Shown in pieces: positions 1 through 12,214 of a DNA stretch of 64,000 bases. The stretch's first letter is position 1, and the number at the start of each line of letters is the position of its first letter. This DNA comes from a virus. The notes below the pieces were generated by a model. The model worked only from the letters and a program-made list of their open reading frames with translations. It made no database searches and had not been told where the DNA came from. Both the position numbers and the translations under genes were made by a program. The stretch lies in the IMG/VR virus record IMGVR_UViG_3300024978_000122; one strand, written 5' to 3'.

Positions 1-124
1 AACTGCATAGTGAAGCCCGCGAGCAGCCTCACTGCCAAGGATTCCCGCCGAACGGCACCAAACGAGTGCAGGCTTGAAAGTTTTACACTATGCTGTACAC
101 ATTTGCTCACGTTTGGCCACAACC

Positions 125-331
125 ATGACAGCCAGTGCTGACGAGGGGGAAATCCTCACCCTCAAGCAGGTCGCGGACTTCCTGAAGGTCACGGAACGGA
201 CGATCTATCGGTTGGCCGCAGCCGGGAAGATTCCTGCGTTCAAGGTCGGCGGAACGTGGCGATTCTCCAGGGCGGAGATCAATCGATGGATTCAACGGCA
301 GCAAATAGACGGCAAAGCCGATAAGACGTAA
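125..331 (+). CDS. Excisionase-type (HTH_17/MerR-like) DNA-binding protein heading the chaperone operon
   Basis: EILTLKQVADFLKVTERTIYRLAAAGKIPAFKVGGTWRF pattern. ATG at 125 preferred over TTG at 74. Paralog at 12011. Confidence 0.85.
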   Translation: MTASADEGEILTLKQVADFLKVTERTIYRLAAAGKIPAFKVGGTWRFSRAEINRWIQRQQIDGKADKT

Positions 332-344
332 CTCACTGGAGGGC

Positions 345-719
345 TTGATGACTCAGCAGACCGAAGGCAGTGAACAGATGGAGCAATCGCTGATCGACAT
401 CGCGGTCGAGAGTTGGCGCTTTTCGCGTCTGTTCGGAAAAGTCGTCAGCAAACTCGATGCTGGAGAGTCAGGTCGTTACGCCAATCAGCTCCGCTACTTT
501 CAGAAAAAAGTCGAGGAAAGCCTCGAGTCGAGCGGTCTCAAGCTCGTCAATGTCGAAGGGCAGCCTTACGACCCGGGCATGGCGGCCTCCGCTTTGAACG
601 TGGGTGACTTCGGCCCCGACGACGTGCTTCTCGTTGATCAGATGGTCGAGCCAATCATCATGGGGGCGAACGGCCTACGCAAACAAGGCACGGTAATGCT
701 GAGGAAGGTGGAAGCATGA
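345..719 (+). CDS. Short GrpE-like protein (C-terminal GrpE domain only)
   Basis: LESSGLKLVNVEGQPYDPGMAASAL...PIIMGANGLRKQGTVML resembles the GrpE G..FDP...R...V beta domain. Stop overlaps the Hsp70 start (ATGA). Start is 345 or 348. Confidence 0.6.
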   Translation: MMTQQTEGSEQMEQSLIDIAVESWRFSRLFGKVVSKLDAGESGRYANQLRYFQKKVEESLESSGLKLVNVEGQPYDPGMAASALNVGDFGPDDVLLVDQMVEPIIMGANGLRKQGTVMLRKVEA

Positions 720-3205
720 AATACGTTGGGATTGACCTCGGCACGACCAACAGTGCCATCTGCTCCTTCGACGGGGAGAGGATTCAGCTCTACAAGAGCC
801 CGGAGCAGCACGACGTTACGCCTTCCGCGATCTTCATCGACCGGCGTAGCAACAAGTACATCGGGTCGCGCGCCTACATGAACGCCGCACGCAATCCGGA
901 CAACGCCGCGACGCTGTTCAAGCGCCTGATGGGCACCAGCACGCCAGTGAAACTGCCTGCGGTCAATCTAACCATGACGCCAGAGGAGTGCTCTGCCGAG
1001 GTGCTGCGCACTTTATTCGGCTACCTGCCGGAAGAAATTCGGGGGGATGGCGACACGGGCACCGTCATCACGGTGCCTGCCGCCTTCAACCAGATGCAGA
1101 AGGACTCGACGATGGCTGCTGCCGACGCGGCTGGCCTCGGGCGGGTCGCGCTGATGCAAGAGCCAGTCGCCGCCGTGATGAGCGTCATGCGCCAACGGAA
1201 GAACGATGGCGTGTTTGTCGTCTACGACCTCGGTGGCGGCACGCTCGACATTGCCATCGCGGAGAGCATCTCGGGGCGCGTGAACCTGCTGGCCCATGGC
1301 GGCATTGCCATGTGTGGTGGGCGCGATTTCGACCGCATCCTGTTCGACAACGTCGTCAAGCCGTGGCTACTGGAGAACTTCGACCTTCCCGAAGATCTGG
1401 CTGCGAACCCACAGTTCAAGTCTCTGCTGCGCATGGCCACATGGGCGACGGAAAAGGCCAAGATCGAACTCTCGCAGAAGGAGGAAGCGGTTGTCAGCCT
1501 TCCCGAGACTGAGCTGGGCGTCCGTGACCAGTCAGGCGAGGAGATCTACATCGACATCGCGGTTGATCGCAAACGCTACGACGGGCTGATTGCATCGAAG
1601 CTCGAGGAGTCCATCCAGTCCGCCCGCGAAACGCTCGAAAAGGCCGGATTGAGTCCGCACGATGTCGAACGCGTCGTCTTCGTGGGAGGCCCCACGCACT
1701 ACAAGCCCCTGCGCGACAAGGTCGCCTTCGAGCTGGGAATCGCCCCGTCCACCGACGTGAACCCGATGACGGCTGTTGCTGAAGGGGCTGCCGTTTTCGC
1801 CGAATCAATCGACTGGTCGTCGCAAAGCCGTGGGCGCAAAAGTGCTCGTGGCGCAATCAGCGCCGGTGGCTCACTCGACCTCTCGTTCAACTACATCGCG
1901 CGCACGCCAGACTCAAGAGCCAAGATCGTCGCCAAGCTGGGCCGCGCGCCCACGGGCATCGAGTTCCAGATCGACAGCCTTGATACAGGCTGGTCGTCTG
2001 GCCGCGTTGCGCTGAAGGATGGCGCGAGCATCGAACTCAGTCTGACCAAGCCCGGCGACAACACCTTCAAGGTGTTTGTGTTCGACTCCAACGGTGCGCC
2101 CGTCACGTTGGGTGAGGACAAGATCGTCATTGCACGTACCGCTGCCAGTATTGACGCGATTCCGGCGTCACATTCCATTGGCGTGGAAGCGCGCGACAAG
2201 GTCGGGGGTCGCTTGGTGCTGGACTACCTCGTGCGCGAAGGCGATCAACTTCCCAAGAAGGGCAAGAAGACCTTCAAAGCGGGCGAGTCGCTCAAAGCTG
2301 GAAGTGCGGGCTCGATCAAGTTCAAGCTATGGGAAGGCGAGATATCTGACCCGATCAACGACAACCGTTTCATCGGCATGTTCGAGATCAAGGGGTCGGA
2401 CTTCGATGACGGCGTCATCACCGCTGGCGCAGAGATGATCTGCGAGTACGAAGTGCTCGACTCCGGCAACATTCAGTTGGAAGTGTCGGTGCCTTCCATC
2501 AGTGGTTCGTTCAAGAGCGGACGCAACTACTACTCCAGCCAGGAGGGCAAGGTCGACTACACCAGTCAGGCCAAGAACATTCAGGAACAGTCCGAACACA
2601 CGCTGGAACGGCTCGAAGAAATGGCCTCCAAGGTGGACGATCCACGCCTGGAGCAAGCCCGCGAGAAACTGGAGCAGGCAAACACCATCGAGTCCGGGGA
2701 GACCGACCCTGAAACAGCGAAGCAGGCGATGGACAACGTACAGGAGGCCAAACGCCTGCTGGCGCTGACTCGCAAAGAGCACCTGAAGGACATCCGCCAA
2801 CTCGAACTGGACAGGACGGTCGGCTTCTTCGAGAAGGCTGTGCGTCAGCATGCCAGACCGACCGAGACATCGTCGTTCGATAGCTTGGTGAAGACGGCGC
2901 AGCGCGCCATCGACAACAACAGCAACGACTTCGAATCGCACCTAGACGACCTGCGGGGCCGCAACTTCATGATCCTGTGGCGTCAGGATTGGTTCGTGAT
3001 CGACCGCTTCAAGTGGCTGGCCCAGGACACCTACCTTTTCGCCGACCTCCACGAACACGCGCAGTGGGTGGCCGTTGGTACCGAGGCGCTAAAAGCCAAC
3101 GACATCGACAAGCTGCGCGCCGTCGTCGCCAATCTCGACTCCATCCGCATCGGCTCCGCAGGAGAGGACGACATGATGGCGGGCGCGAACATCGTTCGGA
3201 GCTGA
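716..3205 (+). CDS. Atypical Hsp70 (DnaK-family) chaperone ATPase
   Basis: GIDLGTTNS, FKRLMG, VITVPAAF, QEPVAA, YDLGGGTLD and FVGG motifs. 829 aa with an extra domain after the ATPase domain, so not a housekeeping dnaK. Confidence 0.95.
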   Translation: MKYVGIDLGTTNSAICSFDGERIQLYKSPEQHDVTPSAIFIDRRSNKYIGSRAYMNAARNPDNAATLFKRLMGTSTPVKLPAVNLTMTPEECSAEVLRTLFGYLPEEIRGDGDTGTVITVPAAFNQMQKDSTMAAADAAGLGRVALMQEPVAAVMSVMRQRKNDGVFVVYDLGGGTLDIAIAESISGRVNLLAHGGIAMCGGRDFDRILFDNVVKPWLLENFDLPEDLAANPQFKSLLRMATWATEKAKIELSQKEEAVVSLPETELGVRDQSGEEIYIDIAVDRKRYDGLIASKLEESIQSARETLEKAGLSPHDVERVVFVGGPTHYKPLRDKVAFELGIAPSTDVNPMTAVAEGAAVFAESIDWSSQSRGRKSARGAISAGGSLDLSFNYIARTPDSRAKIVAKLGRAPTGIEFQIDSLDTGWSSGRVALKDGASIELSLTKPGDNTFKVFVFDSNGAPVTLGEDKIVIARTAASIDAIPASHSIGVEARDKVGGRLVLDYLVREGDQLPKKGKKTFKAGESLKAGSAGSIKFKLWEGEISDPINDNRFIGMFEIKGSDFDDGVITAGAEMICEYEVLDSGNIQLEVSVPSISGSFKSGRNYYSSQEGKVDYTSQAKNIQEQSEHTLERLEEMASKVDDPRLEQAREKLEQANTIESGETDPETAKQAMDNVQEAKRLLALTRKEHLKDIRQLELDRTVGFFEKAVRQHARPTETSSFDSLVKTAQRAIDNNSNDFESHLDDLRGRNFMILWRQDWFVIDRFKWLAQDTYLFADLHEHAQWVAVGTEALKANDIDKLRAVVANLDSIRIGSAGEDDMMAGANIVRS

Positions 3206-3207
3206 TC

Positions 3208-4647
3208 ATGGCCTTGGAAGCGTGGCTACCTGTTGGATTCCAATTGCCGGATGGCGCACGGGTGCGCATCGCACTGTTCGATGGCGCGGACTGGCAGATC
3301 TGCGAAACGATGGGCGGCGGCCGCGCCCTGATCGCACAGGACACGCTGGCGCAACACTGGGTCGAGGCAGGACTGATCGACGAAGGGACGCTGGATGCCT
3401 TCCAGTTCGGTACCCGTCAACTTCGAACGATTTCCAGCGCGCCGAGCCAGACGCTTTGCCCCGTCAGCGAAGGCAAGTCTCCAGACAACAAGTCCGAGGC
3501 ATTGGCCTTCGCGCTGGCGTTGAAGGCCACGCGCGACATCGACCCAGAGTCGGCGCTGCAAGATGCCTTGTATGTCGAGAAGATCACGCGCTTGCTGCCG
3601 ACCTACAGCATCAGTTCCAGAACCGGCGACGATGTCGTGCTCGGCTACTGGCTGACGGGTGGCACCAACATTCCAGCCAGCTCATTCCGCCGCCTGCGTC
3701 AGTCGATGAGCTGGCTGGGCGCGAGCCACTTGAAGGATGTAGTGCAGGCAGCAGGCTTCGAGGTCGCCGAAATCATCCCGCTCGAACGCCAGCCGGACAC
3801 GCCGACCGAGAAGACCGAGGCTGTTCCCGCTGACGAAAAGACCGGGGCCAAACGCACCGCCCCAGAACCGAACAAGGTGTTCGAACTGGCGGGGCGACCA
3901 GAGTTGGCCGCCTTCTTCAACGAGCACATCGTTGACATCATCCTGCACCGCGAGCGCTACAAGGCACTTGGCATCGAGTTCCCCTCTGCGGTGATCCTGC
4001 ATGGCCCTCCGGGCTGCGGCAAGACCTTTGCTGTCGACAGACTGGTGGACTTCCTCGGCTGGCCGAGCTTCCAGATCGACGCCTCCAGCGTGGCCAGCCC
4101 CTACATCCACGAGACCAGCAAGAAGGTCGCGCAGGTGTTCGACAAGGCGATGGAAAACGCACCGTCTGTGCTCGTGATCGACGAGATGGAGGCGTTCCTC
4201 GCCGACCGCGAAATGGGCTCGGGCCATCACCGTGTGGAAGAAGTGGCCGAGTTCCTGCGTCGCATTCCGGAGGCAGTAAAGAACGACGTGCTGATCATCG
4301 CCATGACGAACCGCATCGAGATGATCGACCCGGCCATCCAGCGCCGGGGGCGCTTCGATCATGTCATCAAGGTGGACTTCGCCAGCGAGGTCGAAGTGCT
4401 GGCACTGCTGGACAAGTTGCTCGCCTCCTTGCCAAAAGAGTCGGATGTGGACGCCAAGCCGCTGGCGAAAGAACTGGCGGGCAGGCCCTTGTCCGACGTC
4501 TCTTTCGTGGTGCGCGAAGGTGCGAGGCTGGCGGCGCGCTCCGGCAAGGATCGCCTGGATCAAACCAGCCTTTTGTCCGCTCTGCGCTCGTCACCGGCGC
4601 GGGAGCGTGAAGGCGGTGAAACCAAGCGACGTATCGGATTTGTTTAG
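3208..4647 (+). CDS. AAA+ ATPase (FtsH/p97/SpoVK-like module) with an uncharacterised N-terminal domain
   Basis: Walker A GPPGCGKT, Walker B VIDEME, SRH MTNRIEMIDPAIQRRGRFD, C-terminal RIGF. ATG 3208 lies 2 nt after the Hsp70 stop. Confidence 0.9.
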   Translation: MALEAWLPVGFQLPDGARVRIALFDGADWQICETMGGGRALIAQDTLAQHWVEAGLIDEGTLDAFQFGTRQLRTISSAPSQTLCPVSEGKSPDNKSEALAFALALKATRDIDPESALQDALYVEKITRLLPTYSISSRTGDDVVLGYWLTGGTNIPASSFRRLRQSMSWLGASHLKDVVQAAGFEVAEIIPLERQPDTPTEKTEAVPADEKTGAKRTAPEPNKVFELAGRPELAAFFNEHIVDIILHRERYKALGIEFPSAVILHGPPGCGKTFAVDRLVDFLGWPSFQIDASSVASPYIHETSKKVAQVFDKAMENAPSVLVIDEMEAFLADREMGSGHHRVEEVAEFLRRIPEAVKNDVLIIAMTNRIEMIDPAIQRRGRFDHVIKVDFASEVEVLALLDKLLASLPKESDVDAKPLAKELAGRPLSDVSFVVREGARLAARSGKDRLDQTSLLSALRSSPAREREGGETKRRIGFV

Positions 4648-4659
4648 GGAGAGGCACTC

Positions 4660-5970
4660 GTGGTCGAGGGGGAAGACAAAAACAAGAAAGACGAAAGCAA
4701 AGGCTTCGCCGGCCTCTCGTCGCTCGTGTCCGATGTGGATACGTCGCCGCCTCCTGCTGCCAAGAGGGAGCCCACCAGCACGTCTGGCGCTTCTTCGAGT
4801 CCACATCCACATCCGCCTCCATCAGCGCAAACGGCACCGGCGCAGCCCCAGCCAAGGCAGCAGCAAACGTATCAAGAGCCTTCGCAACCGTCATCCGGAT
4901 CATCTGGCGGCAAGTGGGTGCTCGGCATCGCGGCTGTCATCGGCGTCCTTTGGTTGATCGGCCAGGCCGACAAGCCCACGACCTCGTCAGCGCCCACCTA
5001 CTCACCACCGGTGCAAAGCGCTGCGCCGAGCTATTCGCCGCCAGCGCAGCCGCAAGAGCCTTCTCGTCCGGCTGAATCTCAGCCGCCGGTTGGGCAAAAC
5101 ACCGTCCTGTCGACAGCGCAGATCCGGTATTGCATGGCCGAGGACATCCGTATGGATGGCGCGAAGGCCGCAGTCAATAACTACATCGACGCCGACGTGG
5201 AACGGTTCAACGCGATGGTGGCCGACTACAACAGCCGTTGCGGCAGCTTCCGCTATCGCAGCGGCGCGCTGGAAAGTGCGCGACGGGACATCGAGCCGTA
5301 CAGGGGCCAGCTTCAGTCTGAAGGCCGGAGCAGATTCGCTCGTCCGTCCACTGGCTCACCTTCGACGCCAGCACCAGTGCAATCCAATCCAAGTACAGCC
5401 GTATCCAGTGCTCAAAGTCGCACCGTCCCCGGCCTTGAGTCACTTACATACGACGAGAAGGATGCTATTGAAACCGCCTGCATCCTGAAACGCAGCGAGG
5501 GAGCAGCCAGCTACAACAGGTGCATATCTGCCCAGATTGCTGCTCTCGCCAATGCACCCCGTACACCTGATTTATCAAGTTTGTCCTATGACGAAAAAGA
5601 TGCCATAGAAACCGCGTGCATTCTGAAACGCAGTGAAGGAGCCGCCAGTTACAACCGCTGTCTAGCCTCTCAACTTAGTGCCCTTTCCAACGCTCCACGC
5701 AAACCTGATCTGTCGGGCTTGTCTTACGACGAAAAGGATGCCATCGAAACTGCATGCATCCTGAAACGTAGCGAGGGAGCCGCCAGTTATAACAGGTGTG
5801 TGGTTGCTCAACTTCGCGCTCTTGCCAATGCACCGCGACTACCCAGCTTGGCAGGGTTGTCCTATGACGAGAAGGATGCCATTGAAACTGCCTGCATCCT
5901 GAAACGCAGTGAAGGGGCCGCAAGCTACAACAGGTGTGTGGTTACTCAACTTCGCGCACTAGGCAGATAG
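4660..5970 (+). CDS. Single-pass membrane protein with Cys-containing extracytoplasmic domain and four C-terminal 46-aa repeats
   Basis: TM segment KWVLGIAAVIGVLWLIG flanked by Pro-rich linkers. GTG start after an AGGGAGAGG RBS. Confidence 0.85.
   Translation: MVEGEDKNKKDESKGFAGLSSLVSDVDTSPPPAAKREPTSTSGASSSPHPHPPPSAQTAPAQPQPRQQQTYQEPSQPSSGSSGGKWVLGIAAVIGVLWLIGQADKPTTSSAPTYSPPVQSAAPSYSPPAQPQEPSRPAESQPPVGQNTVLSTAQIRYCMAEDIRMDGAKAAVNNYIDADVERFNAMVADYNSRCGSFRYRSGALESARRDIEPYRGQLQSEGRSRFARPSTGSPSTPAPVQSNPSTAVSSAQSRTVPGLESLTYDEKDAIETACILKRSEGAASYNRCISAQIAALANAPRTPDLSSLSYDEKDAIETACILKRSEGAASYNRCLASQLSALSNAPRKPDLSGLSYDEKDAIETACILKRSEGAASYNRCVVAQLRALANAPRLPSLAGLSYDEKDAIETACILKRSEGAASYNRCVVTQLRALGR
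5434..5967 (+). repeat. Four tandem 138-bp (46-aa) coding repeats, last one partial
   Basis: Core YDEKDAIETACILKRSEGAASYNRC starts at 5449, 5587, 5725 and 5863, exactly 138 bp apart. Confidence 0.97.
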
Positions 5971-5984
5971 GAGCGATCATCGAT

Positions 5985-8009
5985 ATGGCAATGGCAATCT
6001 GCTTTAAATGCGGTTCTGCAAAATCCGGCGCACTGGTCGCCTGCCGGAGTTGTAATGCTGCGCCGCGCACGAACAGCGAGTATGCCGTTTCGCTCGCGCT
6101 CTCCGACCATCTGTCGTCCAAAGATCAACTGGCCCAGTACAGCCACGAACTTCGCAACGGTCAGAAACTGTCTGTGCCGCGTGAGGCGCTTGTTCAGGCG
6201 CTGGATGCACTGAAAGACCCACAGCTCCTGGCGATGCTCGGCGCGCAAGCAGCAGCTCCCGCTCCAGCACCATCCGCCCCAGCAGCAACCCGACAGCCTC
6301 CACCTGCACCGTCGGCAGCTTCGCAACGGTCAGCCCCGCCGCCACCGTCTATCAGGCCGGAGCGTCGACTCACCAAGACGGCCCTCCATCAGTCCCCGTT
6401 CGCCATCTTGGGCGTGACGACACGCGATGACCGCAGACGCATCGTCGAGCTTGCGGAAGAGAAGTCACTGGAACTGGATCACGAGGTTTGCCAGAAGGCG
6501 CGTTCTGATCTGACCAATCCACGCAACCGACTGAGCGTGGAAATGGCTTGGCTCCCCGGCGTCTCGCCTCGCAAGGCATCTCAACTTTTTGACAGCCTGG
6601 TTCACAACCCGATGGCGATTCGGGAAGAGTCTGGTCTGCCTACGCTGGCACACCTGAACCTGCTGGCCGCTGCATTTGAGGCTGTGGATGGTGAGCACGA
6701 TGCGGACGATTTGGCTGAGTTCATCATGGAGACCGCCTACCTTGCCGAAGAGCTAAGCCCCGAGGATGTCCTGCGCGACCTCAATGAGGATCGCGCCGTC
6801 TCCGGCTTTCCGGAAGTGCGTGCGCTCGACCAGATCGAAGCCGAATTGAACGAGCGCAAGCGGTACTACCGCATCGCCATCAAAGACGCCCTCGACAGAC
6901 TTCCGCCAATGACGCTGATCCAAGTGATGACGGAAGCCGTCGATGGCGTGACTTCGGGCGGTGAAGATCATGCACCGGGGCTGGTCGATGATCTCGTGGA
7001 CAGCTACGAGGTGGAAACCCAAGGCATCCTGCAAAAGGAAGCGGAAAACGTCCACAAGCTCATCAAGGTGGCCAGAGAGCATGCCGACTCCGGCGAAGCA
7101 GCCGTCAAGCCTTACGTGGACAAGCTTGATGTGGTTGCACGTAATTGGGACAAGATCGCCCAGCCCATTCAACTGAGTTCGAAGGCGCGCGGTATCGACC
7201 ACGAAGCGAGCCGTCACTTGGCCTATGAGATTCGTAGCCTCGCTATCGACTTATTCAACAAGCATGACATGTTGGCGCAGTCTCAGCGACTGACCGGTCT
7301 GATTCAGGAGCTTTTTTCTGAAGTACCGGAAATCGCAGATCGAGTTGAGGAAGATGCGGACGCGCTCGCGGACATCTTCCAACAGCGCCAGCAGGCTGTG
7401 GCCCGCAAAGATGAGTGGGCGCGCGAAATATCTTACCGTGCCGAGATTGGCGTCATGTTCAAGGACACTTTGAGCATCTCGCCCCAGGGCGTCTCATGGA
7501 AGGGGCAGAACTTTCCCCTCGACTCGATCACGCGCGTTCGTTGGGGCGGCGTCAGTCATTCTGTCAATGGCATCCCCACAGGAACGACCTACACGATTGC
7601 GTTCGGCAATCGAAGTTCCGAAGCAGTTGTGGAACTGAAGAAGCAGGACATCTACAGCACGTTCATCGACAAGCTCTGGCGTGCGGTCTGCGTGCGTCTG
7701 CTCACCGAAATGCTCGAAGCCCTGAAAGATGGTCGCGATCTGCACTTCGGTGATGCGCTCCTGCACGACGACGGCATCACGCTGGTGAAGCGCAAGTTCC
7801 TCGGCTCCAACGAGAAGGTGCGTTGTTCGTGGGGCCAGGTCCACGTATGGAGTGCTGATGGTTCTTTCTGTATCGGAGCCAAGGACGACAAGAAGGTGAA
7901 TGCCGGGATTTCCTATATTCACGGTGCGAACACGCACGTTTTGGAGCAGGCCATTCGCATGGGTTTCAAGAAGCCTGGGATGCGCCGTTTGAGCGAGCTG
8001 CTGCAGTGA
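5985..8009 (+). CDS. Multidomain protein: N-terminal Zn ribbon, degenerate J-like segment, helical region, C-terminal PH-like domains
   Basis: CFKC..CRSC. SPFAILGV...ARSDLTNPRNRL mimics J-domain helices I and III/IV but has no HPD. C-terminal LSISPQGVSWKG..FPLDSI and LHDDGITL..CSWGQV look bPH-like. Confidence 0.7.
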   Translation: MAMAICFKCGSAKSGALVACRSCNAAPRTNSEYAVSLALSDHLSSKDQLAQYSHELRNGQKLSVPREALVQALDALKDPQLLAMLGAQAAAPAPAPSAPAATRQPPPAPSAASQRSAPPPPSIRPERRLTKTALHQSPFAILGVTTRDDRRRIVELAEEKSLELDHEVCQKARSDLTNPRNRLSVEMAWLPGVSPRKASQLFDSLVHNPMAIREESGLPTLAHLNLLAAAFEAVDGEHDADDLAEFIMETAYLAEELSPEDVLRDLNEDRAVSGFPEVRALDQIEAELNERKRYYRIAIKDALDRLPPMTLIQVMTEAVDGVTSGGEDHAPGLVDDLVDSYEVETQGILQKEAENVHKLIKVAREHADSGEAAVKPYVDKLDVVARNWDKIAQPIQLSSKARGIDHEASRHLAYEIRSLAIDLFNKHDMLAQSQRLTGLIQELFSEVPEIADRVEEDADALADIFQQRQQAVARKDEWAREISYRAEIGVMFKDTLSISPQGVSWKGQNFPLDSITRVRWGGVSHSVNGIPTGTTYTIAFGNRSSEAVVELKKQDIYSTFIDKLWRAVCVRLLTEMLEALKDGRDLHFGDALLHDDGITLVKRKFLGSNEKVRCSWGQVHVWSADGSFCIGAKDDKKVNAGISYIHGANTHVLEQAIRMGFKKPGMRRLSELLQ

Positions 8010-8037
8010 TTTAATCAAGAAATATTGGGGAGTTTTT

Positions 8038-8682
8038 ATGGGGTTTCTGTCGAACCTGTTCGGGGGCAATAAAGAGGACAAGGCGCTGCGCGAGGCATTG
8101 GCGCAGATTCACCGCATCCTCGATGACGAAGCATTCCAGTTGGAACTCGTCCATCCTGCAATGAAGGCGATGCTGGAGTCGGCTCCCGCCTATGACAAAG
8201 ACCCGAACGGCAGCGGCCCTTTCGGCTTCACCGAGTCCAATCCGATTCCAGTCAACGGGCCAATCGGCCAGCTGGCGTATCTGTCCAAACTCGAAACCCA
8301 GTCTGGTCAGCGCATCCTTTTTCATCGTCTCGGTGCCATCGACACGGTAGACGTGTTCGAGGCCGTGACGTTCAACGGTGCAGAGTGGTTCATCCTGTTC
8401 GTTGATCTTTACCATCCGCGACGCTCGCGCCTCACCCCGGACGGTTTCCGTTTCACGAAAGAGGTCGCGCAGTTCTCCGGCTTCCACAAGTTTTGCGAGA
8501 ACTTTCCCTACGACTTCGTCGAGAAGAAGGCGTCCGAGCGCGAATCGGGACTGAGCATGGCCTACATCGCCATCAGCAAGGTGTCCGACCAAATCCAGAA
8601 TCGAGTCTTCAATCGGCCGCTGGCTCACAAGGCCAAGCTCGATCTCGTGAAGAGCCGGTTGTCGAGCTTCCAATCCCAATAG
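8038..8682 (+). CDS. Hypothetical protein with amphipathic N-terminus
   Basis: Clean in-operon ORF with MGFLSNLFG start and a GPFGFTESNPIPVNG...AYLSKL motif. Function unknown. Confidence 0.75.
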   Translation: MGFLSNLFGGNKEDKALREALAQIHRILDDEAFQLELVHPAMKAMLESAPAYDKDPNGSGPFGFTESNPIPVNGPIGQLAYLSKLETQSGQRILFHRLGAIDTVDVFEAVTFNGAEWFILFVDLYHPRRSRLTPDGFRFTKEVAQFSGFHKFCENFPYDFVEKKASERESGLSMAYIAISKVSDQIQNRVFNRPLAHKAKLDLVKSRLSSFQSQ

Positions 8683-8691
8683 GTGACGCCG

Positions 8692-9180
8692 ATGAAGAAA
8701 CCGCTTCTCGCGACGCTCGCCGCATTGATGGGCCTCCAGGCCGCACCCGCCCTGGCCGAGAACTACGAGGTGAACCTGACCCGCAAGGGCAGTAACGTTT
8801 ACAAGATTGACGGCAAGGACATCATCATCCAGACACGCTACTGCTACGTCTACGCCTACTCTGAGGAGGCGATCTTCAAGACGTCAGGCTACGGCGGCGA
8901 GGTGATTTTCTTCGACAGCAAGGACAAATGCGATGTGAAGGCGGTCTTTGGCGTGTCGAAGCAGAAGCCGGGGAAATACGTGGTGACAGTCAGCCATGAG
9001 GACGACGACTGGTATGAGGTTTTTGGAACCAGCTCGTACATCAAGACATCAAGCTGCCTGTCTCTTGCCCTTGGCGAGGAGGCTTACCTGACCATTGCGA
9101 ATTCCGGGTTCGGAAGACTGCGCTTCAAAGATGGCAACGACTGCATGGTCGAAGCCGTTTACACCAAGCTGCGGCTATGA
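8692..9180 (+). CDS. Secreted protein with two tandem beta-rich Cys-pair domains
   Basis: Signal peptide MKKPLLATLAALMGLQAAPALA. Internal duplication YEVNLTRKGSNVY..C..EEA..C versus YVVTVSHEDDDWY..C..EEA..C. Confidence 0.8.
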   Translation: MKKPLLATLAALMGLQAAPALAENYEVNLTRKGSNVYKIDGKDIIIQTRYCYVYAYSEEAIFKTSGYGGEVIFFDSKDKCDVKAVFGVSKQKPGKYVVTVSHEDDDWYEVFGTSSYIKTSSCLSLALGEEAYLTIANSGFGRLRFKDGNDCMVEAVYTKLRL

Positions 9181-9197
9181 GAGGGAGATGATGAACC

Positions 9198-10250
9198 GTG
9201 GCTGCTGCTGACGACAAACAAAAGGGAGGTGCCACAGGCTTCTCCGGTCTTTCGACACTCGTCTCCGATGTCGAAGACAACCGTCCTGCCAGCAAAACTG
9301 CGCCGGAAGTCGCCCCGCCGCCGAGCAACCCACCGCCTCCAGAACCTACGCCCACACGGGCCGAGGACGCCCCGGCTGCATCCACCGCACCTCAATCGCC
9401 CAACGGAAAAAGCGACAGTTCTTCCGATGTGACCACCGGCAAATGGATGGTCGGCATCGGGTTGGGAATCGGGCTTCTGCTCATCATCTTCGTCAACTCA
9501 AGCAAGAACGAGTCTACCCGCCCGGTTGCGGCTCCCGCCGCACAGACCCCGGTCGCTGCTGTCCCCGCCTATCAACCGCCACCTCCCCCGCCAGTCACGC
9601 CGAGGCAGCAGCCCACCCAAGAGGCGGTCATCCGGCGAAGCGCCGCCACGGAATCCGTGAACGTGCTCGGCCAGCAGGTTGTGTTCTCGAACCCAAGCGG
9701 CTACTGCACACCGGGCAAGTCGGCACGGGAAATCGAACTGATGGACATGGCACGGCGTTCCCTCGGAGAAGGTTCTCGCCTCGTGCATGCCGCAGTCCTT
9801 TGTTCAGAACTGAAGGACTACAGGCAGGGCCAGCGGGAAATGCTGGATCACTGGCTGCAAATCCAACTCATCGGGCCGAAGGGAAATTTCCAGCGAATCG
9901 AGGTACCGCGCGAGACGTTCCTGTCCGGCCTTTCCAAGTCGAGTCCGCGGGTGAATCCTGCCGAACTCAATCGACGGCTGAAGGCGTCGTTCGAGAACAG
10001 CGACATCAGCCTGTCCGACATGAAGTTTGAGCCGATTGGGCGGGACGGCAACGCGGTCTATTTTTCCATGCGAATGAACATGAGCATTGGGGAAACCAGC
10101 CGACCGATTTCCGGGATCAGCGGAATCACCCTTCTAAACTCTCTCCCTCTGTCGATCAACGTCTATGAAGGCACCGGCTCGCAGCAGAGCCGTGGCCAGT
10201 TGCAGGCCATCCAGCAGGAGTTGCTGAACAGCCTCCTCACCGAGAACTGA
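9198..10250 (+). CDS. Single-pass membrane protein, N-terminally paralogous to 4660..5970, with a different extracytoplasmic domain
   Basis: GFSGLSTLVSDV motif, Pro-rich linker, TM KWMVGIGLGIGLLLIIFV. Confidence 0.85.
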   Translation: MAAADDKQKGGATGFSGLSTLVSDVEDNRPASKTAPEVAPPPSNPPPPEPTPTRAEDAPAASTAPQSPNGKSDSSSDVTTGKWMVGIGLGIGLLLIIFVNSSKNESTRPVAAPAAQTPVAAVPAYQPPPPPPVTPRQQPTQEAVIRRSAATESVNVLGQQVVFSNPSGYCTPGKSAREIELMDMARRSLGEGSRLVHAAVLCSELKDYRQGQREMLDHWLQIQLIGPKGNFQRIEVPRETFLSGLSKSSPRVNPAELNRRLKASFENSDISLSDMKFEPIGRDGNAVYFSMRMNMSIGETSRPISGISGITLLNSLPLSINVYEGTGSQQSRGQLQAIQQELLNSLLTEN

Positions 10251-10903
10251 TGATGAACAGAGCAAGATCAACATTCGCCGCCCTGTACCTCTGCTTGCTG
10301 GCCGTGGTCGCCCTGCCAGTCGCCGCGCAGACGACGGGCCATACCAAGCTCAACGTCAAAGGCCGAGTGCAACTCGAAATCCCGAGCGACTGGACAATCA
10401 GCGATGCGGAACAGCGAAAGCGCGTCAAGGAGTTTGGAGAGAAGCTCGTCGGGATTCCAACTCAGCACACTGCCTCACTTGCGGCGCAGTCCTACCCCGC
10501 GCCGTCACGAACGATGGTCAGGGTGTCGTTCATCCCGATGGAGCCACCAATCACTCAGGCCGATGTGCGGCAGGAAGTCCAAGCGAACAAGCAGCAGGTG
10601 CTGAAGGACTTGGCTGATACCTGGCGGGAAGAGGCCCCGACGATGTGGGCGGGTTTGGCAAAGAACGGTGTGAAAGAAGTGGGCCGCGCCAGCGTTGCCG
10701 TCGAGCCACTTGGCGGCCAGCTCGCCCTGATTATTCGCTACGCGCGCACCTCGACTGCCAATCCGGCCGAGACCATGAGAGTGACCCAGTACCACGTGCC
10801 TCTGGGCGCTGAAAAGGCGCTGATCACGCTTTCGTACATTGAGAGCGATCCGCAAGCGACAGCAGCACACAACCGATTGAAGAACAGCATCGTGATCCGA
10901 TAA
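10250..10903 (+). CDS. Secreted/periplasmic protein, possibly PsbP/DcrB-like fold
   Basis: Signal peptide ending in AVVALPVAA. VQLEIPSDW, GGQLALIIRY and ALITLSY resemble the PsbP/DcrB pattern. Fold assignment is tentative. Confidence 0.6.
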   Translation: MMNRARSTFAALYLCLLAVVALPVAAQTTGHTKLNVKGRVQLEIPSDWTISDAEQRKRVKEFGEKLVGIPTQHTASLAAQSYPAPSRTMVRVSFIPMEPPITQADVRQEVQANKQQVLKDLADTWREEAPTMWAGLAKNGVKEVGRASVAVEPLGGQLALIIRYARTSTANPAETMRVTQYHVPLGAEKALITLSYIESDPQATAAHNRLKNSIVIR

Positions 10904-10921: not shown

Positions 10922-11551
10922 ATGGCCTACGAAGATCCCAACGCACCGTCGCCCGCCTCCAACAACCAGGCCCAACAATCAACGTCGCCTGTTGATCAAA
11001 GCAAGAGCTTTCTTGGCGGGCAACATCACCCGTGGCGACGATTGTTCGCGCGCACGGTCGATATCTGCACGGCAGGATTCCTGCTGTTCCTGATCCTGAT
11101 ATTCGCTTTTAGCGCAACGATGCCCGAACAGGCGGCGGGCTTTGCAAAGGCAATAGAGAATCCGATTGTCGCCAGCGTCGTGCTGTATTTGATCTGGCTG
11201 CCTGCTGAGGCGGTGCTGCTGTCGTTGTTCGGGACGACTCCGGCCAAGTGGCTGTTCGGCATCAAGGTCGCGCACCCTGGAGGCGGCTTGCTGTCCTTTT
11301 CGGAGTCGCTGAACCGCTCGTTTCTGGTCTTTGTTCAGGGCGTCGGGTTCGGCATTCCATTCGTCGCACTGTTCACGCAGTTGTTCGCGTATCGGCGGCT
11401 GACGAAAACGGGCACGACGCTGTGGGATACATCGACAAGCGCGGAGGTGCTTCACAGAAAGTGGGGCGTGTTCCGCGCGCTCATGTGTACTGCCGCCGTG
11501 TTCGCCGTACTGATTCTGATGAGTGCCTTGAACGCGGCAGGCAATCGATAA
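10922..11551 (+). CDS. RDD family membrane protein
   Basis: HPWRRLFARTVD, GTTPAKWLFGIKV, RSFL and LWD..T.V motifs; multiple TM segments. Confidence 0.88.
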   Translation: MAYEDPNAPSPASNNQAQQSTSPVDQSKSFLGGQHHPWRRLFARTVDICTAGFLLFLILIFAFSATMPEQAAGFAKAIENPIVASVVLYLIWLPAEAVLLSLFGTTPAKWLFGIKVAHPGGGLLSFSESLNRSFLVFVQGVGFGIPFVALFTQLFAYRRLTKTGTTLWDTSTSAEVLHRKWGVFRALMCTAAVFAVLILMSALNAAGNR

Positions 11552-11569: not shown

Positions 11570-11860
11570 ATGGCATACGAAGACCCCAACGCGCCGTCAC
11601 AGCCCCAGACGCGCGCGCCTGCCGCACCTGCAGCAGCACCAGCGGCCACACCCGAAAAGAAGTCCGGCTCATGGGACTGGCTGTGGCCGTCCATTGTTGC
11701 GGTCATCATCGTCAAGGTGTTCGGCCTCGTTGGCGGCCTGGTTACCTTTGGCTGCTACTACTGGCTCAAACCGAAGCTGGGAACGTGGGGCGCGGTTGCT
11801 GCCTCCGGCGTCATCGGCGTGGTGGTTGCCATCGGCCTCATGGCAATGATTCGTAGCTGA
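11570..11860 (+). CDS. Small 2-TM membrane protein sharing the N-terminal MAYEDPNAPS with the RDD protein
   Basis: GGAGGAA RBS, two hydrophobic segments, first 10 aa identical to those of 10922. Confidence 0.8.
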   Translation: MAYEDPNAPSQPQTRAPAAPAAAPAATPEKKSGSWDWLWPSIVAVIIVKVFGLVGGLVTFGCYYWLKPKLGTWGAVAASGVIGVVVAIGLMAMIRS

Positions 11861-12010: not shown

Positions 12011-12214
12011 ATGGCAGACGCAGAAGACGAAATCCTCACGCTGGATGAAGTCGCGGCCTACCTGAAGGCGGGCAAGCGCACGGTCTACCGGCTCGCGGCG
12101 GACAAGAAGATCCCGGCGTTCAAGCTCGGCGGCACTTGGCGGTTCCGCAAGGCCGATCTGGAGCAGTGGATTGCGCAGCAAACAACAGGCGGCCAACGCG
12201 AGGGGAACGCATGA
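12011..12214 (+). CDS. Excisionase-type HTH protein heading the RM operon (controller-like)
   Basis: EILTLDEVAAYLKAGKRTVYRLAADKKIPAFKLGGTWRF. Overlaps the hsdM start (ATGA). Confidence 0.88.
   Translation: MADAEDEILTLDEVAAYLKAGKRTVYRLAADKKIPAFKLGGTWRFRKADLEQWIAQQTTGGQREGNA

Follow-up and report, generated by a model that had tools for sequence, protein, structure and literature searches.

Introduction

Specialised bacterial Hsp70 systems with a defined client peptide are, to our knowledge, very few, HscA and IscU being the textbook case. HscA reads the invariant LPPVK peptide of its dedicated client IscU together with HscB. Short terminal segments are also read by AAA+ ATPases, as with ssrA-type tags, the free cytoplasmic tails needed by FtsH, and the N-terminus of MAD2 engaged by TRIP13. 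Among single-pass envelope spanners, TonB, which draws its energy from ExbBD and the proton gradient, has hardly any cytoplasmic tail. Here, we analyse an operon near the start of a 64,000-nucleotide stretch of DNA from the IMG/VR virus record IMGVR_UViG_3300024978_000122 (hereafter the window), which encodes an atypical Hsp70, a classical AAA+ ATPase and two membrane proteins, A and B, that carry the same short peptide (hereafter the tag) close to their N-termini.

Hsp70-like proteins have been placed in two further groups of systems: the neighbourhoods of GAP1-N2 GTPases, which include Hsp70, GrpE and DnaJ fusions (Kaur et al. 2020, PMC7159879), and the CoCoNuTs, which contain the Hsp70-like CnuD (PMC11090510). 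A receptor-like subtype of TIR-ParA systems contains type II membrane proteins that a preprint reads as sensors of wall breach (bioRxiv 10.64898/2026.10.19.760177).

Two results of our comparison are solid: the tag is linked to the Hsp70/AAA+ operon across genomes, and selection acts on it as a peptide. Going by the sequences, we consider it somewhat probable that the tag serves as a cytoplasmic docking peptide linking wall-directed membrane proteins to the operon's Hsp70/AAA+ machine, and we favour the substrate-binding domain (SBD) of the Hsp70 as its reader.

A shared N-terminal peptide in two otherwise unrelated membrane proteins

The two tag-bearing genes and their parts are as follows.

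4660..5970, + strand: protein A, a type II membrane protein of 436 amino acids bearing the tag; open reading frame with a GTG start
4699..4737, + strand: tag of A, KGFAGLSSLVSDV, residues 14-26
4738..4911, + strand: cytoplasmic low-complexity spacer of A, about 58 amino acids, rich in Pro, Ser, Ala, Gln and Thr
4912..4965, + strand: transmembrane helix of A, KWVLGIAAVIGVLWLIGQ, residues 85-102
5080..5337, + strand: constant periplasmic proximal domain of A, with two Cys, recognised by near-invariant columns among 120 homologues
5434..5967, + strand: variable distal part of A, four Cys-pair repeats in this genome
9198..10250, + strand: protein B, 350 amino acids, the second type II membrane protein bearing the tag; open reading frame with a GTG start
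9234..9272, + strand: tag of B, TGFSGLSTLVSDV, residues 13-25
9441..9494, + strand: transmembrane helix of B, KWMVGIGLGIGLLLIIFV, residues 82-99
9645..10247, + strand: ectodomain of B, alpha/beta, of no recognised family and unrelated to the ectodomain of A

Both GTG starts are preceded by Shine-Dalgarno-like sequences, GGGAGAGG for A and GAGGGAG for B. The sequence GF[AS]GLS[ST]LVSDV is common to the two proteins and lies within residues 14-26 of A and 13-25 of B; in each it is followed by a spacer of 56-59 amino acids rich in Pro, Ser, Ala and Gln, and then by a single hydrophobic helix beginning GKW. When A was compared with B by BLASTP the alignment was confined to residues 2-89 (E 3e-6), and their C-terminal parts did not align to each other. 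An earlier, sequence-only reading of this DNA had proposed just this combination of a common tag, Pro-rich linker and GKW transmembrane helix with unrelated ectodomains; the open reading frames and BLASTP confirm it, and the translations place both tags where that reading had put them.

When the window and its 3.5 Mb draft genome were scanned in six frames, the pattern GF.GL..L.S turned up at the A and B sites only. The 36-nucleotide stretches coding for the two tags differ at 7 positions, and outside the motif the A and B modules share only about 33-37% identity. Among 59 distinct modules from other loci, every synonymous codon is used for the invariant Gly, Phe, Leu and Ser residues, and pairwise codon differences inside the motif number 9664 synonymous versus 2414 non-synonymous. 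Because synonymous variation is free around an invariant peptide, selection must act on the tag as a peptide. The tag is thus a peptide selected at the protein level, and neither a chance resemblance nor a DNA-level repeat.

The tag behaves as a short linear motif in a large protein family

A word-indexed search with residues 1-105 of A returned at least 400 proteins of 240-760 amino acids; in nearly all of the 120 retrieved from these, the tag begins at residue 13-17 and GKW lies near residue 80. We then built a profile from 24 A-type and B-type modules, distant ones included, and ran it against 1.84 billion cluster representatives, which gave matches in 649 clusters (50% identity) at E<=1e-3 and 195 at E<=1e-10. 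GF[AS]GL is present in 133 of 146 retrieved profile matches, nearly always inside the first 40 residues, and most of the other 13 carry near variants such as GFGGL or GFAGI.

Among divergent members, G15, F16, G18, L19, V23 and S24 of the tag are invariant, and L22, V26 and the K-W at the start of the helix nearly so. Where divergence is greatest, with the Hsp70 down to 62% identity, the motif and the K-W are the sole survivors. The proposal that the motif is the only conserved cytoplasmic part consequently stands across divergent members, with the K-W added to it, and falls for the close A family, in which the whole tail is conserved. The spacer between motif and helix has a median length of 54.5 amino acids (interquartile range 52-58, 136 cluster representatives), and its sequence diverges while its length is kept (16% Pro, 15% Ser, 12% Ala). 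Two cluster representatives carry the tag in tandem, about 48 amino acids apart (P0386, residues 14 and 63; P0405, residues 13 and 61), and the tag is unstructured in an AlphaFold2 (AF2) model of B. Tandem copies, a tag predicted to be unstructured and a spacer conserved in length and not in sequence are what one expects of a short linear motif in a disordered tail. One apparent fusion of the AAA+ protein to a tag (P0366), a candidate Rosetta-stone protein, was rejected, as it looks frameshifted and badly assembled.

The tag is tied to an Hsp70/AAA+ operon

Four further genes, here g124, Hsp70, AAA+ and ZnJ, form a five-gene core with A.

345..719, + strand: g124, 124 amino acids, read as GrpE-like from a weak Pfam GrpE resemblance; always the first core gene
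716..3205, + strand: atypical Hsp70, 829 amino acids; Pfam HSP70 at residues 4-363
3208..4647, + strand: classical AAA+ ATPase, 479 amino acids from MALEAW; Pfam AAA E 6.7e-30
5985..8009, + strand: ZnJ, 675 amino acids from MAMAICFKCG, read from sequence; no Pfam family

Using the two best-conserved peptides of the module, we searched a single genome of each species, irrespective of neighbouring genes, and obtained 41 loci, mostly from Burkholderiales, Xanthomonadales, Pseudomonas and Aeromonas, of which 35 had enough flanking DNA to be informative. The Hsp70 is encoded in 34 of these 35, the AAA+ protein in 34, ZnJ in 32 and g124 in 31, most of the missing core genes being lost to contig ends. 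The lone informative locus without an Hsp70 gene (L012) is a remnant in which the AAA+ gene is truncated at residue 299 and the p214 gene, from the extension described below, at residue 27. Searching in the reverse direction, with the family-specific C-terminal half of the Hsp70, found 2 of 400 genomes sampled from the class, and both of these loci hold a tagged A, with the variants GFAGLSSFITNSD and GFSGLSDLVSQVS. Three loci of divergent profile matches were inspected; two lie in the same core, and the contig of the third is too short. Occurrence of the motif in loci that lack this Hsp70 would have spoken against the sequence-only reading, and the cross-genome pattern search left the linkage of a constant tag to the Hsp70/AAA+ operon standing, the one exception being the remnant.

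The core runs g124-Hsp70-AAA+-A-ZnJ in the window, ZnJ precedes A in the most distant loci, and ZnJ is always next to A. Each locus carries one to three tag genes, so that the 'array' of receptors once suggested for this system is too strong a term. A Rhodocyclales locus (L039:6943-15152) has three A genes with tags, together with additional ZnJ paralogues, in a pairwise ZnJ-A arrangement, with tag variants GFAGLNQLVSDVE and GFAGLGSMVSEID; its Hsp70, AAA+ and g124 genes are single-copy despite the duplicated pairs. In the window's own draft genome, which is 83% complete and whose contig begins at window position 4093, the C-terminal part of the Hsp70 was not found; this is a matter of assembly and not an absence.

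Several loci depart from the common layout. In the remnant (L012:9431-13423), g124 and the Hsp70 are missing, as are residues 1-298 of the AAA+ protein. In Achromobacter sp. M1 (L010) nearly every operon gene is frameshifted, possibly through assembly error, and in another locus (L031) the Hsp70 and g124 genes are inverted and 7 kb away, with the AAA+ and ZnJ genes missing. A divergent core in GCA_000404445.1 (L051, 3200-19049) has two extra small genes between ZnJ and A; its A protein is 626 amino acids long with two PG_binding_1 domains, and a DUF87/HerA-like ATPase gene and a Cdc6/ORC-like gene lie nearby.

The predicted cytoplasmic machine

Pfam detects no more of the Hsp70 than its canonical ATPase domain. 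An AF2 model of the remainder, residues 364-829, has a mean predicted local distance difference test score (pLDDT) of 68; it contains a beta-rich insert, another beta domain and a long helical lid modelled with confidence. When this model was compared with the PDB by Foldseek, all top matches were Hsp70 SBDs (DnaK, HscA, BiP) with probability 1.00 and low template modelling scores (TM-scores), and complexes of DnaK and of HscA with peptides were among them. These fold matches suggest that a peptide-binding domain is probably present and that, as modelled, the Hsp70 retains the SBD fold.

The AAA+ protein belongs to the classical unfoldase clade, its nearest NCBIfam and PADLOC models being PAN, FtsH, Cdc48 and IetA, all far below their cut-offs. 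Its N-domain of about 250 amino acids returned no family in a lenient Pfam search (E<=10). The protein ends in RRIGFV (window 4630-4647), and a distant homologue from a low-GC genome ends in RRIGFI (L049, near 5600); this conserved tail faintly resembles the HbYX tails by which proteasomal ATPases dock, and the operon encodes no partner ring.

ZnJ consists of a zinc ribbon, a Pro-rich linker, a J-like domain, a helical region and a beta-rich C-terminus, and has no Pfam DnaJ match even at E<=10. Against the GrpE family (PF01025), g124 scores E 0.18 over residues 39-78 (11.9 bits versus a cut-off of 25.8), and its C-terminal G.PYDP... stretch looks by eye like the GrpE beta domain; we infer from these resemblances that it may be a GrpE-like exchange factor. 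Across the unassigned parts of the operon proteins, the lenient Pfam search gave only sub-threshold matches: GrpE at 0.18, T2SSM_b at 0.003 and DUF6585 at 0.03.

About half of the loci continue into an extension, p214-p165-B-p217-RDD-p96, whose genes other than B are listed here; minimal five-gene cores lack p214.

8038..8682, + strand: p214, cytoplasmic, opens the optional extension; N-terminal MGFLSNLFGG conserved
8683..9180, + strand: p165, taken as periplasmic because it has a signal peptide
10250..10903, + strand: p217, with a signal peptide; its UniRef name is DUF1795 domain-containing
10922..11551, + strand: RDD-family membrane protein (Pfam RDD E 3.5e-18), N-terminal MAYEDPNAPS
11570..11860, + strand: p96, 96 amino acids, small single-pass membrane protein, N-terminal MAYEDPNAPS

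The RDD protein (10922-10951) and p96 (11570-11599) open with an invariant MAYEDPNAPS, followed in each by a Pro/Ala-rich stretch and a transmembrane helix, and at least 10 further loci preserve the peptide in both proteins. The existence of a second shared N-terminal peptide points to such handles as a design rule of the system. The MGFLSNLFGG of p214 (8038-8067) is kept in a 53%-identical homologue from the same low-GC genome (L049), possibly a further handle.

Outer domains and topology

Behind a Pro-rich periplasmic linker of about 40-45 amino acids, A carries a proximal domain with the signature PPVG..QIRYC..DYNSRC..FRYR, which the sequence-only reading had overlooked. It is near-invariant in 120 homologues and present in 119 of the 146 profile matches, and in minimal A forms of 206-257 amino acids it is the whole of the outer part. 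No family was found for it in Pfam, lenient search (E<=10) included, or in the ESM Atlas.

What follows this domain differs between genomes. A Pfam scan of thirty representatives of the A family found PG_binding_1 to be by far the commonest distal domain, sometimes doubled; others carry Cys-rich repeat arrays, SH3_3, an SLT lytic transglycosylase domain, Sel1 repeats with Lcl_C, or no distal part. Most A orthologues match PF01471 at E 1e-12 to 1e-24. In the window's A, Pfam found no match to PF01471, and the distal part holds four helical Cys-pair repeats; a Pfam 'Alba' match to these repeats was discarded as spurious, being below cut-off and covering 20 residues. To judge by the recognisable distal domains, the common theme is the cell wall.

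The 200-residue ectodomain of B is, by contrast, 87-100% identical in the 120 best of 372 matches, and the length of B is fixed at 345-350 amino acids. The idea of swappable sensors is therefore limited to A, whose C-terminal part is indeed exchanged between genomes, and fails for B, whose outer domain is constant. An AF2 model of B from a 20-row alignment has a mean pLDDT of 49 (50-80 in the ectodomain), and Foldseek searches of AFDB clusters with that ectodomain gave weak similarities (TM 0.2-0.44) to lipoprotein, DUF1795 and PsbP-like folds, which may serve as a lead only. The sub-threshold T2SSM_b match noted above (E 0.003) falls in the same ectodomain and concerns the periplasmic domain of type II secretion protein M. 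A comparison of B with the neighbouring DUF1795-named p217 by hhalign showed no relationship (probability 0.1). Sequence searches of PDB chains with A, B and ZnJ returned nothing meaningful, and the ESM Atlas gave only unnamed clusters or scores <0.8 for the B ectodomain, the AAA+ N-domain and the A proximal domain.

Both A and B show the hallmarks of type II membrane proteins, with no signal peptide, a charged N-terminus and, about 80 residues further on, a lone helix whose hydropathy is 2.2-2.6. Domains that bind or cleave the wall (PG_binding_1, SLT, SH3_3) and paired Cys residues all lie C-terminal of the helix. Cys accounts for 0.1% of the tails versus 1.9% of the C-terminal parts, where its count is even and non-zero in 111 of 136 proteins. 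The wall-type domains and the Cys asymmetry strongly favour an N-in/C-out orientation, and we regard A and B as very likely single-pass inner-membrane proteins of that topology.

A docking model and its rivals

We propose that a conserved and horizontally mobile operon would supply a dedicated Hsp70 cycle, made up of the GrpE-like g124, the atypical Hsp70 and the J-like ZnJ, together with a classical AAA+ ATPase. The N-terminal module of the tagged proteins has three parts: the motif [KR]-G-F-[AS]-G-L-S-x-[LM]-V-S-[DE]-[VI]-[DE], which begins at residue 13-15; a disordered spacer that keeps a length of about 55 amino acids; and the GKW transmembrane helix. Docking of the tag would couple periplasmic domains directed at the cell wall, namely PG_binding_1, SH3_3, SLT, Sel1 or Cys repeats in A and a constant alpha/beta domain in B, to the cytoplasmic ATPase machine. 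The Hsp70 SBD may read the tag with ZnJ as a pairing adaptor, as HscA reads the LPPVK of IscU with the help of HscB. We favour this reader because it is a peptide binder by fold, because it is single-copy, as the invariance of the tag demands, and because HscA and IscU set a precedent; docking function and reader identity alike we infer.

For the role of the system, envelope surveillance or defence is our leading guess, based on carriage by integrative and conjugative elements (ICEs), plasmids and a Tn7-like element beside restriction and defence genes, and on the wall-directed ectodomains. In its boldest form, which we put forward as speculation and think unlikely to hold in full, the operon would represent a new, mobile class of envelope-surveillance systems, immune or stress-related, in which a universal 13-residue tag plugs interchangeable wall-binding membrane proteins into one Hsp70/J-like/GrpE-like/AAA+ machine. 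A change of state in a peptidoglycan-bound ectodomain might then change the way in which the tail is engaged by the chaperone or unfoldase; alternatively, the machine might pull on the wall through the tail. If true, this would be chaperone-driven transduction of signal or force across the inner membrane that uses no kinase, protease cascade or proton gradient.

Several observations weigh against docking to the Hsp70 SBD or against the topology it presupposes. The motif can be drawn as a three-turn amphipathic helix with F16, L19, L22, V23 and V26 on one face, and Hsp70 SBDs bind extended peptides. Acidic residues flank the motif on its C-terminal side, and canonical DnaK sites disfavour acidic residues. 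The SBD is too divergent for Pfam, and the beta parts of its model reach a pLDDT of only 55-75. In the J-like stretch of ZnJ (SPFAILGV...LELDHE...LTNPRNRL), DHE occupies the position of the HPD tripeptide, which is needed to stimulate canonical Hsp70, and B has no adjacent ZnJ partner. Lys and Arg are as frequent before the helix (189) as after it (191), so that the positive-inside count is neutral. A complex prediction from alignments, pairing Hsp70 residues 364-829 with A residues 1-45, scored 0.00 against a mark of 0.32 with no controls, and counts neither way.

The tag and spacer might instead be an initiation site for the AAA+ unfoldase, whose ring would grip the tail and thread it and so extract, unfold or pull A and B as its substrates, the Hsp70 acting as accessory or regulator. 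This is unlikely in our estimate, and the points in its favour are these: FtsH, Cdc48/Msp1 and TRIP13 engage terminal tails; a free, disordered N-terminal tail of about 80 amino acids suits engagement by pore loops; an AAA+ protein of the unfoldase clade, nearest to PAN, FtsH, Cdc48 and IetA, accompanies the tag in 34 of 35 informative loci; a constant spacer length would fit a ring positioned at a defined distance from the membrane; and MAYEDPNAPS sits at the very terminus of two other operon membrane proteins. However, no protease or obvious effector is encoded that would make extraction purposeful, and pore loops need little sequence specificity, so that a motif invariant over 13 residues, two glycines included, speaks rather for recognition by a folded site; the AAA+ N-domain could itself be that site. 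We give rather less credence, and consider it doubtful, that the tag serves in assembly and is recognised by a partner other than an ATPase, be it the beta-rich C-terminus of ZnJ, p214, or the tails of A and B mutually, with the chaperones acting elsewhere. The adjacency and co-duplication of A and ZnJ, the existence of tandem tags and the conserved, G-F-rich N-terminal peptide of p214 would all fit such a motif. Yet the A paralogues of the Rhodocyclales locus keep nearly identical tags beside different ZnJ paralogues, which fits a single-copy reader better than paralogue-specific binding by ZnJ; moreover, B is tagged with no ZnJ as neighbour, and the minimal cores do not include p214.

A purely membrane-directed role, in which the tag is an amphipathic helix on the inner leaflet or a signal for insertion or localisation and is linked to the operon merely through its membership in A and B, strikes us as very unlikely. 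Drawn as a helix the tag does place its hydrophobic residues on one face, but with two invariant glycines and many serines it would form a weak membrane helix, a Pro-rich spacer of constant length separates it by about 55 residues from the transmembrane helix, and surface helices tolerate substitution whereas the tag is near-invariant in 59 modules. That the likeness of A and B reflects chance, low complexity or recent gene conversion can practically be dismissed: the tails are compositionally biased, but 7 of 36 nucleotides differ, synonymous codons vary freely around the peptide, the modules are about 33-37% identical outside it, and the motif turns up in hundreds of clusters and at no other site in this genome, so that the genome scan, codon analysis and profile search together refute this explanation. 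Docking of the tag to the Hsp70/AAA+ machine is, of these accounts, the one with the best support.

Mobility and genomic setting

The operon is rare, at 0.5% of the genomes sampled from the class (2/400), and its proteins are 80-95% identical across distant genera. In Pseudomonas aeruginosa ICEs it is cargo between DUF3275 and DUF2859/TraG genes, and in Aeromonas it adjoins DndE, IS21 and Type I restriction genes. On the A. caviae IncP plasmid pKAM471_1 (NZ_AP026371.1, 1-19756; L055) the complete 11-gene operon lies directly downstream of tnsABCDE and is thus cargo of a Tn7-like transposon; the Hsp70 of this record is annotated as two pieces. Another copy is on a Shewanella plasmid, and on a metagenomic contig the operon sits beside a Shedu-type SduA_C gene. 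It was not found in the phage collection searched. The restriction and other defence genes among these neighbours suggest a role in defence or conflict, as anecdotes and not as a count.

Within the window, G+C content is 0.58-0.63 from position 1 to about 22,000, below that of the remainder (0.64-0.69). This low-G+C part holds a closely packed row of + strand genes, from the HTH_17 gene below through p96; a Type I restriction operon and a second HTH_17 gene come 3' of p96.

74..331, + strand: small HTH_17 regulator (AlpA/excisionase-like), Pfam HTH_17 E 3e-19, directly upstream of the operon

The same gene is also found upstream of the operon in the P. aeruginosa ICE copies. The second small excisionase-like gene (12011-12214, HTH_17-like as read from its sequence only) lies 5' of the Type I restriction operon, and the Hsp70 and restriction operons are thus each headed by their own small excisionase-like gene. 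Databases name the operon proteins hypothetical, 'Hsp70 family', 'ATP-binding' or 'peptidoglycan-binding'. No operon protein scores above cut-off with PADLOC-DB v2 or NCBIfam defence models; the AAA+ domain gives the lone match (IetA/IteA, TRIP13), at 88 bits versus the IteA cut-off of 510, and the other eight proteins give none.

Comparison with known systems

Our literature search found no paper with the exact motif strings or this gene set; it covered subscription journals thinly, and an earlier description is possible. It is a real possibility that the whole system is new, its parts echoing a dedicated Hsp70-client peptide and receptor-like type II proteins. The near-invariant peptide is an easy marker for a large family (649 clusters) of membrane proteins with a dedicated Hsp70/AAA+ machine, carried by an operon that moves among Pseudomonas, Aeromonas, Shewanella, Bordetella, Comamonas, Acidovorax and others through ICEs, plasmids and a Tn7-like transposon. 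It also offers a direct experimental handle on what the machine does and how chaperones may be wired to the cell wall. If the operon turns out to be a module for defence or envelope stress, transmembrane signalling would gain a mode based on chaperones.

TonB-type spanners resemble A and B in having one N-terminal transmembrane helix, a Pro-rich periplasmic linker and a globular domain that reaches the wall; unlike TonB, the operon proteins present an 80-residue cytoplasmic tail to ATP-driven machines. AAA+-read tags share with this system a short or disordered terminal segment beside a classical AAA+ protein, and the PADLOC TRIP13 and IetA models match its ATPase domain. They differ in that the operon has no protease, HORMA or IetS partner, and in that its motif is internal, starting at residue 13-15, and conserved far beyond what pore loops need. 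The Hsp70 conflict systems described in the two papers (PMC7159879, PMC11090510) also combine a non-housekeeping Hsp70 with variable operons near defence genes and sometimes with their own GrpE or J partners; as described there they are based on GTPases or McrBC and do not include this AAA+ protein, ZnJ, tagged peptidoglycan-binding proteins or the motif.

On the chaperone side, the HscA-HscB-IscU system is alike in pairing a non-housekeeping Hsp70, encoded with its own J-type partner, with proteins that bear an invariant peptide, and the HscA SBD-peptide complex (1u00) is among the fold matches of the operon Hsp70's C-terminal part. In contrast to IscU, the putative clients here are membrane proteins with periplasmic wall-binding domains, and the operon also has an AAA+ gene and a GrpE-like gene; HPD is missing from the J-like domain, the tag bears no relation to LPPVK, and the role of A and B as clients is one we propose. 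On the membrane side, the type II proteins of the receptor-like TIR-ParA subtype are the nearest architectural parallel, as far as the preprint describes them (10.64898/2026.10.19.760177): they too combine a cytoplasmic N-terminus that stays constant with a single transmembrane helix and with exchangeable outer domains that bind peptidoglycan, carry SH3 folds or process peptidoglycan. As portrayed there, the N-terminus is a fused, folded ParA NTPase, whereas A and B carry a 13-residue peptide and the NTPases are separate proteins, and the A of this operon has a constant periplasmic domain of its own.

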